A stretch of 64,000 bases of DNA, taken from NCBI GenBank assembly GCA_963974765.1, contig CAXBEI010000002.1, positions 588,450 through 652,449 on the forward strand, in the 5' to 3' direction. The notes beneath the pieces were generated by a model. The model made no database searches and had not been told where the DNA came from. It saw nothing but the letters and a program-made list of their open reading frames with translations. Source of the DNA: an uncultured Sphingorhabdus sp. Its GTDB lineage: Bacteria > Pseudomonadota > Alphaproteobacteria > Sphingomonadales > Sphingomonadaceae. The translations under genes and the position numbers were made by a program. Below, piece after piece: positions 10,620-14,989 of the stretch; within the stretch, counting starts at the first letter, position 1; the number at the start of each line of letters is the position of its first letter.

Positions 10620-10853
10620 CTAAAGTTCGACGCCCGCCGCAATCGCTTCCAGTTTCCGAATACGCTCTTTGAGATCCGCCACCTCGATCCGAGATGTGGC
10701 GGTCGGCGGATTATCTTCGCGCCGCTGCTCGATCTCGCGGGATTTGAGGGCGATCCAGTCGCGCCAACCCCGTAGGGTCACGAGTGCGACCACCGTCAAT
10801 CCAATCAGCGAAAAAGCCGCGGTGATCATATAAAAAGCAGGTTCTTGCATCAT
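10620..10853 (-). CDS. Small single-TM coiled-coil protein, PspB-like paralogue 5
   Basis: N-terminal TM segment and C-terminal DLKERIRKLEAIAAG. Confidence 0.8.
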   Translation of the reverse strand: MMQEPAFYMITAAFSLIGLTVVALVTLRGWRDWIALKSREIEQRREDNPPTATSRIEVADLKERIRKLEAIAAGVEL

Positions 10854-10880
10854 GCTTGTCCTTCCACTTTCTGGACCGGC

Positions 10881-11141
10881 TTAGCGGTCGCGCAATTTTT
10901 CGATCTCGTTTTCCAGTTCCCGGGCACCACGATCGTCGGTGGCGATTTTCTCGAGCACGGCGACGCGTTCTTTGAGATATTTTACTTCTTCCTGAAGGCG
11001 GTCAGAATCCCGATTCTGCGCGGCAATCTCATTGCCGTGCTGATCTTCGATAATTCCATTTTGCGCCCGGTAACGGGTGCTGAGCACCTTCCCGATTGTG
11101 ACAACGATGATGATGGCTACAACCATTTCAAACGGATTCAT
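10881..11141 (-). CDS. Small single-TM coiled-coil protein, PspB-like paralogue 4
   Basis: TM segment and EEVKYLKERVAVLEKIATD...LENEIEKLRDR. Confidence 0.85.
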   Translation of the reverse strand: MNPFEMVVAIIIVVTIGKVLSTRYRAQNGIIEDQHGNEIAAQNRDSDRLQEEVKYLKERVAVLEKIATDDRGARELENEIEKLRDR

Positions 11142-11173
11142 CTAGATATTCCCTCCAGGCTTCGCGGACCCAA

Positions 11174-11428
11174 TCAACGGTCGCGCAATTGTTCGATTTC
11201 GCTTTCCAGTTGCCGTGTGCTGTGACCATCGGTTGTGATCTTTTCCAGCACCGCGACTCGGTCCTTGAGATATTTCATCTCTTCACGCATCCGTTCCGCA
11301 TCGGCGTCATGGGTTGCGGGAAATTCTCCGCGCATCTTGATCAGCTTTCTTTGATGACCTGTCCATATTGCGAACCCGGCAACGGCAAAGGCTCCGAACG
11401 GGATGAGTAGCGCGATTATGCCTTCCAT
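11174..11428 (-). CDS. Small single-TM coiled-coil protein, PspB-like paralogue 3
   Basis: TM segment and EEMKYLKDRVAVLEKITTD...LESEIEQLRDR. Confidence 0.85.
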   Translation of the reverse strand: MEGIIALLIPFGAFAVAGFAIWTGHQRKLIKMRGEFPATHDADAERMREEMKYLKDRVAVLEKITTDGHSTRQLESEIEQLRDR

Positions 11429-11440
11429 GATTGTGTCCCC

Positions 11441-11770
11441 TTAATTCGCGCGCTTGTCGCGCAGCTGTTCGATTTCCTGCGTAAGCCTATGGCTGTCATC
11501 AGTGACAATCCGTTCGACATTGGCGAGCCGGTCTTTGACAGATCCTAACTCGGCGCGCAGTTCGGCGTTCTCGTTGGTCAGCAATTTGACGCGTTCGACC
11601 GCTTCCTGATCGGTTTTGGGATAGACGGACTTGCCCCACTGGTTTTCCAAGGGATAGCCGTTCTTGATCCGCATCCAGGTGGTGACGACCCATCCGGCGA
11701 CTGTAATCGCTGCTACAGTGGCGATTATCGGAGCCAGCTCGGTGATCATGGCGATCTTTTCCGGATCCAT
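11441..11770 (-). CDS. Small single-TM coiled-coil protein, PspB-like paralogue 2
   Basis: TM segment, WMRIKNGYPLENQWG, KDRLANVERIVTD...LTQEIEQLR; start overlaps the upstream stop. Confidence 0.85.
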   Translation of the reverse strand: MDPEKIAMITELAPIIATVAAITVAGWVVTTWMRIKNGYPLENQWGKSVYPKTDQEAVERVKLLTNENAELRAELGSVKDRLANVERIVTDDSHRLTQEIEQLRDKRAN

Positions 11771-12069
11771 CAGTTCTTCTCCCTCAGTGCTTCGATTTCG
11801 TCCGCGGTACGTTTGGCGGGATCGGTGGCGATCCGCTCGAGCACTTGCAGGCGTTCCTGCAGGCGGTCGATCTTGCCGACCAGTTCTTCATTCTCACTGG
11901 AAAGCAGTTCTATTTTCCGCTGCTCGTCCGGGCTGGTCTTGGAGGATTTTCCGCCCCATTCGTCTTCCAGCTCATAGCCATGTTTGGCTCGGATCCAGTT
12001 GTTGATGATCCATCCTCCGTAGCTGACGGCGATGATGGCGATAACAAATTCGGGGCCTCCGAAATCCAT
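11770..12069 (-). CDS. Small single-TM coiled-coil protein, PspB-like paralogue 1
   Basis: TM segment, WIRAKHGYELEDEWG, ERLQVLERIATD...DEIEALR. Confidence 0.85.
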   Translation of the reverse strand: MDFGGPEFVIAIIAVSYGGWIINNWIRAKHGYELEDEWGGKSSKTSPDEQRKIELLSSENEELVGKIDRLQERLQVLERIATDPAKRTADEIEALREKN

Positions 12070-12092
12070 ATCGATTCTCCCTGTTCAGGCGC

Positions 12093-12476
12093 TTAGCGCA
12101 GATTTTCTATTTCGTTGGACAACGTCGTGTTCTTGCTGGTGTAGTAAAGCTCCATATCGGCCAGCTTGCGATCGATTTCCCGGAAGCGTGATTTGATATC
12201 CCGCGTTGTGCGGCGCGGTGACTGGCGCACGCCTTGCCAGAATTTGGTATCCTCCGGATCGCTCAGATACATGCCGATCGGTTTGGGCTCGGAAATTTTG
12301 GCCGCGATCCAATAGGCTATCAGCGTCCAGGGGAAGGCAAATGTTACCGTCGCGATGATGGCTGCCAGCCGAACCCAGGCTACATTGATCCCGGTATAAT
12401 CAGCGATCCCGGCACAGACCCCGCTCCATTTTGCGCGTTGCTTGTCGAGATAGAATTTGGTGCGTGAGGAGCTCAT
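12093..12476 (-). CDS. pspC: Envelope stress response membrane protein PspC
   Basis: FYLDKQRAKWSGVCAGIADY (PspC domain), one TM segment, C-terminal DRKLADMELYYTS. Confidence 0.93.
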   Translation of the reverse strand: MSSSRTKFYLDKQRAKWSGVCAGIADYTGINVAWVRLAAIIATVTFAFPWTLIAYWIAAKISEPKPIGMYLSDPEDTKFWQGVRQSPRRTTRDIKSRFREIDRKLADMELYYTSKNTTLSNEIENLR

Positions 12477-12781
12477 GAGGGATGCCTTTCTTTCTTCAGA
12501 AGCTCGTCAAAATTTTCGAGCGATGGGGCGGGGTCAGTCGACGGGCTTGGCAGTCCGGACTGACGCCAGTCCGGATTGTCAGCAGCCATGATGCGTTCAA
12601 TGGTTTCCATCCGGTCATCCAGTCGACGCGCCATATGGTGCAATTCTTCCAGCAGATTTTCATCTTCGTTGGTGATCGTCGCGGCGGTTTTCCATTTCGT
12701 GACATAATGAAATATCAACCAGGGTAGACCGATGAACAGGGTTCCCATTACGATGGGAATGATGATGAGTTCTTCCTGCAT
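12473..12781 (-). CDS. pspB: Envelope stress response membrane protein PspB
   Basis: LFIGLPWLIFHYVTKWK and RRLDDRMETIERIMAADNPDWR; lies between pspA and pspC. Confidence 0.92.
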   Translation of the reverse strand: MQEELIIIPIVMGTLFIGLPWLIFHYVTKWKTAATITNEDENLLEELHHMARRLDDRMETIERIMAADNPDWRQSGLPSPSTDPAPSLENFDELLKKERHPS

Positions 12782-13455
12782 TATGCGTCACCTTTTTTCA
12801 TAGCTGCCTTCATGGCTTCGAGTTCTTCATCAACCTTGTCGCTGGATTCCAGCGCGGCGATCTGGTTTTCCAGGCTCTGCGGCTCTCCGCCCATGCCCAT
12901 CGAGTCGGCGCGACCTTCGGCGAAATCGACTTGCCGTTCGAGATATTCGAACCGCGAGAAGGCATCGTGCACCTTTTCGCCATTGTACATTTCGCGCAAT
13001 TTCACGCGATTTTCAGCACTTTCGAGACGATTGACCAGGCTGCTCTGACGCGAGCGGGCTTCCTGCAATTTCTTCTGCAGTTTTGCGATGTCACCTTCAG
13101 ACGCCCGAAGCGTGTCATCCAGAACCTTGATTTCCGCTTTTAGCTCGTCGGCCATGTCGGCCGCCTTGCGCTTCTCTACCAGAGCCGCCTTGGCGAGGTC
13201 TTCCCGATCCTTGGAAAGGGCCAGCTGGGCTTTTTCGCTCCAGTCTTCGGTCAGATGATCAAGCTTGTCGATATGACGACGCATTTCCTTCTGGTCGGCA
13301 ATCGTGCGAGCTGCAGAGGCGCGCACCTCGACCAGGGTCTCTTCCATTTCTAGAATGATCATGCGGATCATTTTGGAAGGGTCCTGGGCCTTGTCCAGCA
13401 TGTCGGTAACGTTGGCGGCGATGATGTCGCGCGTTCTTGAAAAAATACCTGCCAT
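12781..13455 (-). CDS. pspA: Phage shock protein PspA
   Basis: MAGIFSRTRDIIAANVTDMLDKAQDPSKMIRMIILEMEETLVEVR followed by a long coiled coil; a GGAG SD precedes this start. Confidence 0.95.
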   Translation of the reverse strand: MAGIFSRTRDIIAANVTDMLDKAQDPSKMIRMIILEMEETLVEVRASAARTIADQKEMRRHIDKLDHLTEDWSEKAQLALSKDREDLAKAALVEKRKAADMADELKAEIKVLDDTLRASEGDIAKLQKKLQEARSRQSSLVNRLESAENRVKLREMYNGEKVHDAFSRFEYLERQVDFAEGRADSMGMGGEPQSLENQIAALESSDKVDEELEAMKAAMKKGDA

Positions 13456-13604
13456 GTACATACTCCGGTTACGTCTGTGGTTGTGTGTGAACCTGTTCGA
13501 GCCGTCGCTCCAGTCCTGTTCTACATCAACCTGGTGAATTTCGAAAGGTGGCCGGGACCTGACTTCGGCAAGGGGAAAAGAAGGGGTCCCGGCCATTTTG
13601 TCTG

Positions 13605-13781
13605 TCATGCTCGATAACCTAAGTTAACGAAAACGACAGCGGGGGAATCGTTCTGGGTTTTGGCCATCGTGCCTTCGGCCTGTGCCGGTCCGACAGCGCT
13701 GATCAAAATCGTCACGCCAAAAAGCAGGATCGAGATGATTGCGGAAATGTCGATGCGGCTCAATTTGTTCAGTGCTGGCAT
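13605..13781 (-). CDS. 58-aa small protein with signal-peptide-like N-terminus, probable first gene of the psp operon (absent from the ORF track)
   Basis: Hand translation MPALNKLSRIDISAIISILLFGVTILISAVGPAQAEGTMAKTQNDSPAVVFVNLGYRA*; GGAG SD 6 nt before ATG; directly downstream of the sigma-54 promoter. Confidence 0.7.
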   Translation of the reverse strand: MPALNKLSRIDISAIISILLFGVTILISAVGPAQAEGTMAKTQNDSPAVVFVNLGYRA

Positions 13782-13825
13782 GATGTGCTCCAGAAGTTGG
13801 TTTGTTTCGTATCTGAAACCTACTT

Positions 13826-13841
13826 TGCAGAACTCGTGCCA
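13826..13841 (-). promoter_or_regulatory. Sigma-54 -24/-12 promoter of the psp operon
   Basis: Minus strand TGGCACGAGTTCTGCA; GG and GC are separated by exactly 10 nt. Confidence 0.85.
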
Positions 13842-13848
13842 AACTGAT

Positions 13849-13861
13849 TAACATATTGATA
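13849..13861 (-). promoter_or_regulatory. IHF binding site
   Basis: Minus strand TATCAATATGTTA matches WATCAANNNNTTR; lies between the sigma-54 site and the putative UAS. Confidence 0.65.
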
Positions 13862-13914
13862 TATATGGAAATACTGAATTTCCCGGCATGTTGCATATAG
13901 TATTAATTGCTATT

Positions 13915-13932
13915 TAGTGGGATTTTGCACTA
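13915..13932. promoter_or_regulatory. Putative PspF upstream activating sequence
   Basis: Palindrome TAGTG-N8-CACTA about 75-90 bp upstream of the -24 element. Confidence 0.45.
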
Positions 13933-13942
13933 TATGTTGGCC

Positions 13943-14989
13943 ATGGAACGCGAAAGTCAATTTGTCGGGGAATCGGGCGCTTTTCTCGATGCAGTAGAAA
14001 AAGCCAGCCGGGCGGCGCAATTGCACCGTCCGGTCCTTGTAGTCGGAGAACGCGGGACCGGCAAGGAACTCATCGCAGAGCGGCTTCATCGGCTCAGCCT
14101 CCGTTGGGACGGTCCGTTCATAACGCTCAATTGTGCAGCCATGCCCGAGACGCTGATCGAAGCGGAATTATTCGGCCACGAAGCCGGTGCCTTCACCGGT
14201 GCAACGAAGGCGCGGGTAGGGCGGTTCGAGGAAGCCGACGGCGGCACATTATTTCTCGACGAACTCGGGACATTGTCGACCGGCGCGCAGGAGCGACTGT
14301 TGAGAGCGGTCGAATATGGCGAAATCACCAGGATCGGATCCTCGCGGCCGCAGCGGGTCGATGTTCGGATTGTCGCCGCGACCAACGCCGACCTGCCGAA
14401 AATGGCAGCAGAAAACAGATTTCGCGCCGACTTGCTCGACCGACTTTCCTTCGAAGTGGTCACGTTGCCGCCGTTGCGCGTTCGCGAAGGCGATATCCCC
14501 GTGCTGACAGATTATTTCGGCCGACGCATGGCGGCGGAACTGGATTGGCCATCATGGCCCGGCTTTGGCCGGCTCGCTTCAGAAGCGCTCAATCGTCACG
14601 ACTGGCCGGGCAATGTCCGGGAATTGCGCAATGTGATCGAGCGCGCGGTCTATCAATGGAATGACCACAGCAGGCCGGTCGACCATGTCGTGTTCGATCC
14701 TTTTGAATCGCCCTGGAAACCTCGGGAAACAAAACCCCAGCAGGAAGCCGAGCCGGATGCCCAGTCGGCAGCAGAAGCCTCGCCAGCGCCCGCTGCACCC
14801 GCTTCGTCCGAACCTGCGTTCCAGGATGTCGACGATATGAAAGCGGCGGTCGAAGCCTTCGAGAAACGGATATTGGAAGCTGCCTTGGCCAAATCGCGCT
14901 ACAATCAGCGGCAGACGGCCAAGGCATTGAACCTGACCTATGATCAGTTGCGCCATTCGCTGAAAAGGCATGATCTGCTCGGAACATGA
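13943..14989 (+). CDS. pspF: Phage shock operon sigma-54 activator PspF
   Basis: Walker A GERGTGKE, GAFTGA loop, GGTLFLDE, WPGNVRELRN, C-terminal Fis-type HTH; no N-terminal sensor domain; divergent from pspA. Confidence 0.95.
   Translation: MERESQFVGESGAFLDAVEKASRAAQLHRPVLVVGERGTGKELIAERLHRLSLRWDGPFITLNCAAMPETLIEAELFGHEAGAFTGATKARVGRFEEADGGTLFLDELGTLSTGAQERLLRAVEYGEITRIGSSRPQRVDVRIVAATNADLPKMAAENRFRADLLDRLSFEVVTLPPLRVREGDIPVLTDYFGRRMAAELDWPSWPGFGRLASEALNRHDWPGNVRELRNVIERAVYQWNDHSRPVDHVVFDPFESPWKPRETKPQQEAEPDAQSAAEASPAPAAPASSEPAFQDVDDMKAAVEAFEKRILEAALAKSRYNQRQTAKALNLTYDQLRHSLKRHDLLGT

Follow-up and report, generated by a model that had tools for sequence, protein, structure and literature searches.

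The window, a stretch of 64,000 nucleotides that was analysed here, contains a phage-shock (psp) locus in which a small open reading frame (micro-ORF) is placed between a divergently oriented pspF gene and pspABC (Table 1). The encoded micro-protein, MPALNKLSRIDISAIISILLFGVTILISAVGPAQAEGTMAKTQNDSPAVVFVNLGYRA (58 aa, translation of the minus-strand ORF), comprises a basic N-terminus carrying K6 and R9, a hydrophobic core at residues 12-31, the tripeptide AQA at residues 33-35 and, beyond it, 23 further residues. A preliminary description of this DNA had pointed out these parts together with the GGAG Shine-Dalgarno sequence, and all of them were found in place on re-reading, as was the claimed interval of 44 nt between the last base of the sigma-54 element and the ATG of the micro-ORF. 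It had also called the ORF unlisted, which holds for the earlier ORF track but not for public annotations, where a 58-aa hypothetical protein is already on record. Searches of Pfam and NCBIfam at E-values of up to 1 returned nothing beyond noise for the micro-protein. Five small one-helix coiled-coil ORFs, taken here for PspB-like paralogues, follow 3' of pspC; together with pspC they fall at window positions 10620-12476.

Table 1 Features of the psp locus, given in window coordinates.
Feature	Position	Strand	Remarks
pspF, sigma-54 activator, divergent	13943..14989	+	Pfam Sigma54_activat 1.4e-61 and HTH_8; adjoins the locus throughout the relatives examined
Conserved block containing a pair of short palindromes (TAGTG..CACTA, ATAG..CTAT)	13896..13940		Near-invariant in the 24-genome spacer alignment
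Sigma-54 promoter, TGGCAC-N5-CTGCA (-24/-12)	13826..13841	-	TGGCACG..TGC kept in 24/24 loci of the genus
Micro-ORF Shine-Dalgarno, GGAG	13788..13791	-	6 nt 5' of the ATG
Micro-protein gene, 58 aa	13605..13781	-	Predicted first psp cistron; ATG at 13781, TGA at 13607-13605
Residues 12-35 of the micro-protein, hydrophobic helix and GP-AQA, constrained core	13677..13748	-	dN/dS 0.10, pS 0.56; core motif common to several genera
Candidate N-terminal extension of long PspA, 51 codons in the pspA frame	13456..13608	-	ATG at 13608 overlaps the micro-ORF stop (ATGA)
Hairpin, GGCCGGGAC...GTCCCGGCC	13549..13595	-	Begins at extension codon 5, 9 nt past the stop
Canonical pspA Shine-Dalgarno, GGAG	13463..13466	-	CGGAG invariant in 24 genomes though inside the open upstream frame
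pspA, canonical 224-aa form (MAGIFSRTRD...)	12781..13455	-	Pfam PspA_IM30 8.4e-37; dN/dS 0.04-0.08
pspB	12781-12473	-	Pfam PspB 1.5e-26
pspC	12476-12093	-	Pfam PspC 7.8e-14

In enterobacteria, from which the Psp response is known almost entirely, the psp operon begins with pspA. The micro-ORF had been proposed to be the first gene of the operon in the window, and its position supports this reading: it lies ahead of pspA and behind the sole sigma-54 promoter of the pspF-pspA spacer, and would hence form a first cistron that is presumably co-transcribed with the genes downstream. A -24/-12 element, a divergent pspF, and a conserved upstream block are all present, as would befit a sigma-54/PspF promoter. 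The block is a candidate PspF enhancer site, judging from its position ~60-110 nt upstream of the promoter. Pattern searches returned a sigma-54 site in nearly all loci of the family. On the plus strand, a sigma-70-like sequence, TTAACA-16-AATACT, occupies window positions 13848-13875, ~70 nt before the start of pspF; it falls within the divergent control region and may serve as a promoter for pspF.

The preliminary description had hinged on a conserved ORF upstream of pspA in relatives, and a synteny check bore this out. In a six-frame search of 41 relatives, the micro-ORF was recovered, free of internal stops, from 24 of the 25 genomes of the same genus, and in all 24 Parasphingorhabdus loci it is syntenic, lying between pspF and pspA. 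Its ATG is invariant and preceded by GGAG(G) 5-7 nt upstream in every one of these 24 loci. The encoded proteins measure 54, 58 or 60 aa, with indels of whole codons only. The overall dN/dS of the micro-ORF is 0.27; in pairwise Nei-Gojobori comparisons it ranges from 0.24 to 0.38, as against 0.04-0.08 for pspA. This constraint is unevenly spread: dN/dS is 0.10 for residues 12-35 (pS 0.56), 0.25 over the final five codons, 0.36 in the N-region and 0.63 in the tail. Given the synteny, the invariant ATG and GGAG(G), the whole-codon indels and the dN/dS, the micro-ORF is a real protein-coding gene, already annotated but uncharacterised, and its presence in 24/25 genomes with a fixed start, a fixed ribosome site and a length of 54-60 aa places it far beyond a chance ORF. 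A large protein collection contained 114 clusters of 48-90 aa, the named members of which come from Parasphingorhabdus or Sphingorhabdus, are all labelled 'hypothetical protein', and carry no Pfam domain.

We next consider the spread of this gene across Sphingomonadaceae. A profile built from the genus sequences gave weak matches in other genera of the family, likewise between pspF and pspA. A broader profile matched in 57 of 301 family genomes, with 28 of the 30 loci returned being syntenic; PspA was present in 280 of the same 301 genomes. Among 20 psp loci devoid of a profile match, 17 have, in the interval from the sigma-54 promoter to pspA, a small one-helix ORF with a ribosome site, and the other three an ORF of 6-13 codons at that position. 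In total, such a first gene—a divergent homologue or an analogue—is carried by ~70 of 76 Sphingomonadaceae psp loci. The core common to the different genera reads (L/V)LF(S/G)xTx(V/I)LSAVGPAxA and is followed by a variable tail, which ends with Ala, mostly as Y/P/E/V-x-A, in 61 of 67 non-redundant sequences. In other genera, the ribosome site of the micro-ORF takes the form GGAG, GGGAG or AGGAG. An independent scan of one genome per species (185,579 species) with the peptide pattern CT[IV][LIV]FS[AT]TC yielded 35 loci, from Sphingomonas, Sphingobium, Stakelama and related MAGs, and 34 of them were flanked by pspF and pspA.

Outside the family, 12 loci have the sigma-54 promoter 45-86 nt from pspA, as in E. 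coli, and others have long leaders holding unrelated small ORFs with the helix at the C-terminus. Loci of other alphaproteobacterial families (L086, L090, L096, L102, L103 and L107) contain such an unrelated ORF type between the sigma-54 promoter and pspA, encoding 47-97 aa with a C-terminal helix such as ...ESWLFFLAGIVVGAILG. In L099 and L113, 34-aa hydrophobic ORFs are found ahead of pspA instead. Small membrane ORFs preceding pspA seem to recur within Alphaproteobacteria. One record titled Arthrobacter sp. TPD3018 (L126) holds a pspF/micro-ORF/pspA locus of the Sphingomonas type, with a layout near-identical to that of Sphingomonas aquatilis; this assembly is probably mislabelled or contaminated.

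At two loci of the family survey, L059 and L071, from two genera other than Zymomonas, the gene at the same position is considerably longer. It encodes 160-170 aa, made up of a hydrophobic segment at the N-terminus and, behind it, a TonB C-terminal domain (TonB_C; Pfam 4.7e-9, and TIGR01352 1.8e-12 for L059), a domain that is absent from the 58-aa micro-protein. A further long form was found in Zymomonas mobilis, in which a hypothetical gene between pspF (ZMO1061) and pspA (ZMO1063), ZMO1062, had been suggested to belong to the psp regulon (PMC3495753). Later papers refer to it as 'putative pspD', and RNA-seq across temperatures and in xylose medium has it rise and fall with pspA (PMC8237431, PMC8645129). 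We located the gene in Z. mobilis ZM4 (locus L114) through a published qPCR primer (PMC2651186). ZMO1062 is 172 aa long, starts with MFSFPHSRF..., has QPAFA-FS after its hydrophobic stretch, and matches TonB_C at 27.8 bits; its stop lies 4 nt before pspA, and the Zymomonas locus is devoid of the hairpin.

The three long forms (L059, L071 and ZMO1062) are homologous over their full length (E about 1e-10). The micro-protein profile scored 30.7 bits against the N-terminus of L059, and gave no match to the N-termini of ZMO1062 and L071 taken alone. Because this N-terminal segment is all that is common to the micro-protein and the TonB_C long forms at the same position, the micro-protein is best read as the retained signal or anchor of a first cistron of ~170 aa and TonB_C type, or as sharing an origin with its N-terminus. 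The PspA tree was too poorly resolved to give a direction, loss or gain of the domain, to this change. In most Sphingomonadaceae, the hydrophobic segment, the GP-AxA motif and the C-terminal Ala would be all that is still under selection.

With respect to ZMO1062 itself, the profile match is to TonB_C and not to PspD, so that its sequence identifies it as a signal-bearing TonB_C-domain protein without similarity to PspD. It is like the gene in the window in its position between pspF and pspA behind a sigma-54 promoter, in its N-terminal hydrophobic signal, and in its start, MFSF..., which recurs in several of the micro forms. It differs in its length of 172 aa with TonB_C, its 4-nt distance to pspA, and its lack of both the hairpin and a PspA extension, the gene in the window corresponding to the signal or anchor part only. 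Neither of the two proteins has a match in the PspD family.

From the micro-ORF stop to the canonical pspA ATG there are 149 nt, and their conservation exceeds that of the micro-ORF. An earlier reading had taken them for a spacer and had missed both the in-frame extension of pspA and the conserved hairpin they contain. The pspA frame is open across this gap in 24 of 24 genomes, whereas the other two sense frames have stops in 22 of 24, and the gap lengths within the genus (137, 149, 167 and 170 nt) differ by multiples of three. An ATG or GTG overlaps the micro-ORF stop (GCATGA or GCGTGA) in all 24 genomes. Starting there, PspA would be 275 aa long, with a 51-residue extension, MTDKMAGTPSFPLAEVRSRPPFEI..., of which MAGTPSFPLAEVR is an example peptide; some JGI gene calls use this long form. 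No Pfam match was found for the PspA extensions, and the extension is probably disordered. Downstream of the hairpin, the extension has a dN/dS of 0.46. The start of the long form (ATGA/GTGA) is without a ribosome site of its own, whereas the Met and an invariant CGGAG are retained at the canonical one, for which reason both pspA starts are probably used.

Similar arrangements were found in other genera. In 41 of their loci, the gap holds 9 stops in the pspA frame, as compared to 28 and 32 in the other two frames. The pspA frame is open for 40-95 codons upstream of the MGIF start in L001-L024, L025, L040, L043, L066 and L079-L085, and starts at ATGA/GTGA. In a subgroup that is sister to Parasphingorhabdus in the PspA tree (98/96 support), the extension again begins at ATGA/GTGA and carries the conserved peptide (N/D)PLGPER...SR(L/I)EEEVERLRR(S/T)PTPT...FFSNGAPL-MGIF. 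The segment SR(L/I)EEEVERLRR(S/T)PTPT (L079, L080, L081, L082, L083 and L085) is similar to the C-terminal ...EIExLR of PspC and the five PspB-like paralogues. Loci L075, L078 and L080 are left with an upstream ORF of 6-13 codons that encodes no hydrophobic helix (MSSFNFNEARNVQ and MRTVMR, each followed by a stop), yet retain the overlap and the extension. Between some close relatives (L041 vs L050, L054 vs L056), a 1-nt change breaks the upstream pspA frame, and the predicted long isoform is for this reason not universal. The open frame, the overlap and the hairpin together suggest a long PspA that is translationally coupled to the micro-ORF.

The hairpin in the gap has a minimum free energy of about -27 to -30 kcal/mol, and in nearly every genus a GC-rich hairpin is found 0-13 nt after the micro-ORF stop. 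RNAalifold on 32 sequences from many genera returned eight consensus pairs, six of which are backed by compensatory double changes; no Rfam family was hit at E-values of up to 1. The pspA GGAG lies outside the structure. A motif in the loop and 3' arm, CCCCTTGCC, is kept across the family (~30 other genera) and, in 14 of 18 loci from outside the genus, codes for Pro-Leu-Ala when translated in the pspA frame. Constraints at the RNA level and at the coding level probably overlap at CCCCTTGCC, although none of the explanations considered (an RNA element, Pro-Leu-Ala coding, or the two combined) fully accounts for the motif. The first 20 codons of the PspA extension, which are conserved with a pS of only 0.18, coincide with the hairpin, implying that part of what looks like conservation of the extension peptide is RNA-level. 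Two other identities of the hairpin were considered and rejected. As for a dispersed REP-like repeat, the pattern has five genomic sites and the loop motif occurs at this one only; as for an additional sigma-54 promoter within the hairpin (loop TTGC), its GG-N10-GC spacing is not retained from genus to genus and does not occur in Parasphingorhabdus.

We consider it reasonably probable, on the comparative evidence, that the micro-ORF encodes a membrane micro-protein that, as the first psp cistron, serves as an accessory or feedback component coupled to downstream expression, and that it is of TonB_C-related origin. In such a scheme, PspF would activate a transcript starting ~34 nt before the micro-ORF, and the product would be induced together with PspA, PspB and PspC, as expected from co-transcription. 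The micro-protein would have one membrane helix, with its short basic N-terminus facing the cytoplasm and its short tail, which is loosely constrained, facing the periplasm. Through its helix it would most likely act within the membrane in an accessory or feedback capacity for the Psp response, PspB, PspC or the PspB-like paralogues being the candidate partners. Ribosomes finishing the micro-ORF may open the hairpin and re-initiate at the ATGA/GTGA to yield long PspA, and short PspA would be made from its own ribosome site.

Part of the same evidence could be explained by a purely cis-acting leader ORF, the translation of which would open the hairpin for re-initiation of long PspA or tune read-through of the hairpin, with a peptide devoid of function. 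Such a leader would fit the ATGA/GTGA overlap and the closely following hairpin in nearly all genera, as well as the nearly unconstrained tail, and the shrunken ORFs of L075, L078 and L080, which retain the overlap, favour a role in cis over one in trans in those lineages. However, the dN/dS of 0.10 over the 24 helix codons goes along with high synonymous change, and the core motif persists across genera whose PspA proteins are only 60-75% identical. A leader that merely has to be translated would not preserve residues in this manner, and the last 10-20 residues, where an arrest motif would be located, are the most variable ones. We therefore view a purely cis-acting leader as unlikely.

A related idea, and one we hold to be speculative and distinctly improbable, regards the micro-ORF as a 'signal-anchor only' gene retained for sensing and targeting. 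SRP-dependent insertion of its helix would bring the psp mRNA to the membrane during translation, only those ribosomes that complete the micro-ORF would open the hairpin and re-initiate at the overlapping ATGA to produce the extended PspA there, and the ratio of long to short PspA would report on the efficiency with which small proteins are inserted. If true, this would amount to a translational layer of the phage-shock response and to a PspA isoform, both undescribed.

For the membrane micro-protein that we favour, charge distribution is informative as to topology. The N-region bears a net positive charge in 56 of 67 family sequences, and the net charge of the tail is zero or below in 56 of 67. 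The TonB_C domain is located in the periplasm, and an orientation with the N-terminus inside and the tail outside would fit both the charges and the TonB_C homologues. We also considered whether the micro-ORF and the extension might be a frameshifted PspB-like gene, which this topology speaks against: the basic end is N-terminal, placing the next segment in the periplasm. A lipoprotein was rejected as well, as there is no lipobox and the helix Cys of other genera is absent in this genus.

In addition to a membrane micro-protein, the preliminary description had raised a secreted mature peptide of ~23 aa, which would be released as the active product once a Sec signal peptide is cleaved after AQA. 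Small residues occupy the -3/-1 positions after GP or AP in 56 of 68 sequences (GP-AQA in the window), for which reason cleavage by signal peptidase is possible, with the chances for and against roughly even; in the long homologues, moreover, the same segment precedes a periplasmic domain. Nonetheless, AxA is missing in some members (GPAIT, GPAQV), and with a median of 20 residues the uncharged hydrophobic stretch is as long as a membrane helix (the h-region of a typical signal peptide spans ~7-15). The tail is nearly unconstrained (dN/dS 0.63, as opposed to 0.10 for the helix and AxA), varies in length and sequence between genera, and is absent in one genus (L070), where the protein ends with ...AAVGPALS. 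As the helix is the constrained part, a membrane micro-protein offers the better fit, and a functional secreted 23-mer appears very unlikely.

There is a slim chance that the micro-ORF is an independent monocistronic gene, with the hairpin acting as its terminator and pspA being transcribed from another promoter. The hairpin is strong, GC-rich and placed right after the stop, and in many genera a short U run follows a few bases later; the hairpin and the ensuing ACC-UUUU could terminate part of the transcripts. Against full termination, no U tract abuts the stem, and scans of the interval between micro-ORF and pspA, which are on the same strand, detected neither a canonical intrinsic terminator nor a sigma-70-like promoter nor a second sigma-54 site. 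The upstream pspA frame passes through the hairpin, in many genera the hairpin is a mere 25-50 nt away from where pspA starts, and in Zymomonas the spacer is down to 4 nt with no hairpin. That the micro-ORF is a functionless, decaying relic of a TonB_C gene, as might be suggested by its homology to the N-terminal part of the longer proteins encoded at this position, is hardly credible in view of an intact gene in ~70/76 loci, the retention of start, ribosome site and frame, and the purifying selection.

Several known systems bear resemblance to the proposed membrane micro-protein and its coupling to pspA. Like E. coli PspG and PspD, which are small proteins under PspF/sigma-54 control made together with PspA, it would belong to the psp regulon; unlike them, it is encoded ahead of pspA, and it has no sequence relation to either in Pfam and NCBIfam. 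PspD is a peripheral protein encoded after pspC, and PspG is polytopic and genetically unlinked. Membership in either family was rejected for want of a profile match. Feedback micro-proteins of the MgrB type are small one-helix membrane proteins induced by the very system they modulate. By analogy, the micro-protein is like them in its size, its single helix with a short periplasmic tail, and its membership in a membrane-stress regulon, yet it is not homologous to MgrB, and its partners are only candidates.

The SecM-secA, MifM-yidC2 and VemP-secDF2 pairs likewise place a small ORF with an N-terminal signal or membrane helix, and then a hairpin in the mRNA, ahead of a gene for membrane homeostasis. 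In the micro-protein, however, the C-terminal 10-20 residues are not conserved save for the final Ala, the micro-ORF is too short for its helix to exit the tunnel far enough to pull on the chain, and the hairpin does not include the pspA ribosome site. An arrest peptide was rejected on the grounds that conservation in the C-terminal region is confined to the last residue, that the tail has a dN/dS of 0.63, and that the pspA GGAG is outside the hairpin. With classical ATGA-coupled cistrons, the locus shares the fused stop and start, a downstream start without a ribosome site, and a hairpin in the region of that start. It differs in what the downstream start would produce, namely a longer isoform encoded by a gene with an independent start of its own 51 codons on, the coupling here being deduced from sequence.

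A 2024 survey of Psp systems reported PspB duplicates and other variants, and mentioned no gene ahead of pspA in Sphingomonadaceae (PMC11237479). ZMO1062 has been noted only in passing in the Zymomonas papers, and the coupled long PspA is a new lead. The reading given here would, if confirmed, also put right the 'pspD' label of ZMO1062 in Zymomonas mobilis, an industrial organism. The micro-protein itself would provide a clear case of a gene reduced to its signal or anchor and yet kept under selection. At the level of the family, a conserved one-helix micro-protein, or a long form bearing TonB_C, is put ahead of pspA, and in several genera the end of this gene is tied to a second, longer PspA start by an ATGA overlap and a covarying hairpin. 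Should this be confirmed, a much-studied membrane-stress system would gain a component and perhaps also a step of control at the level of translation.
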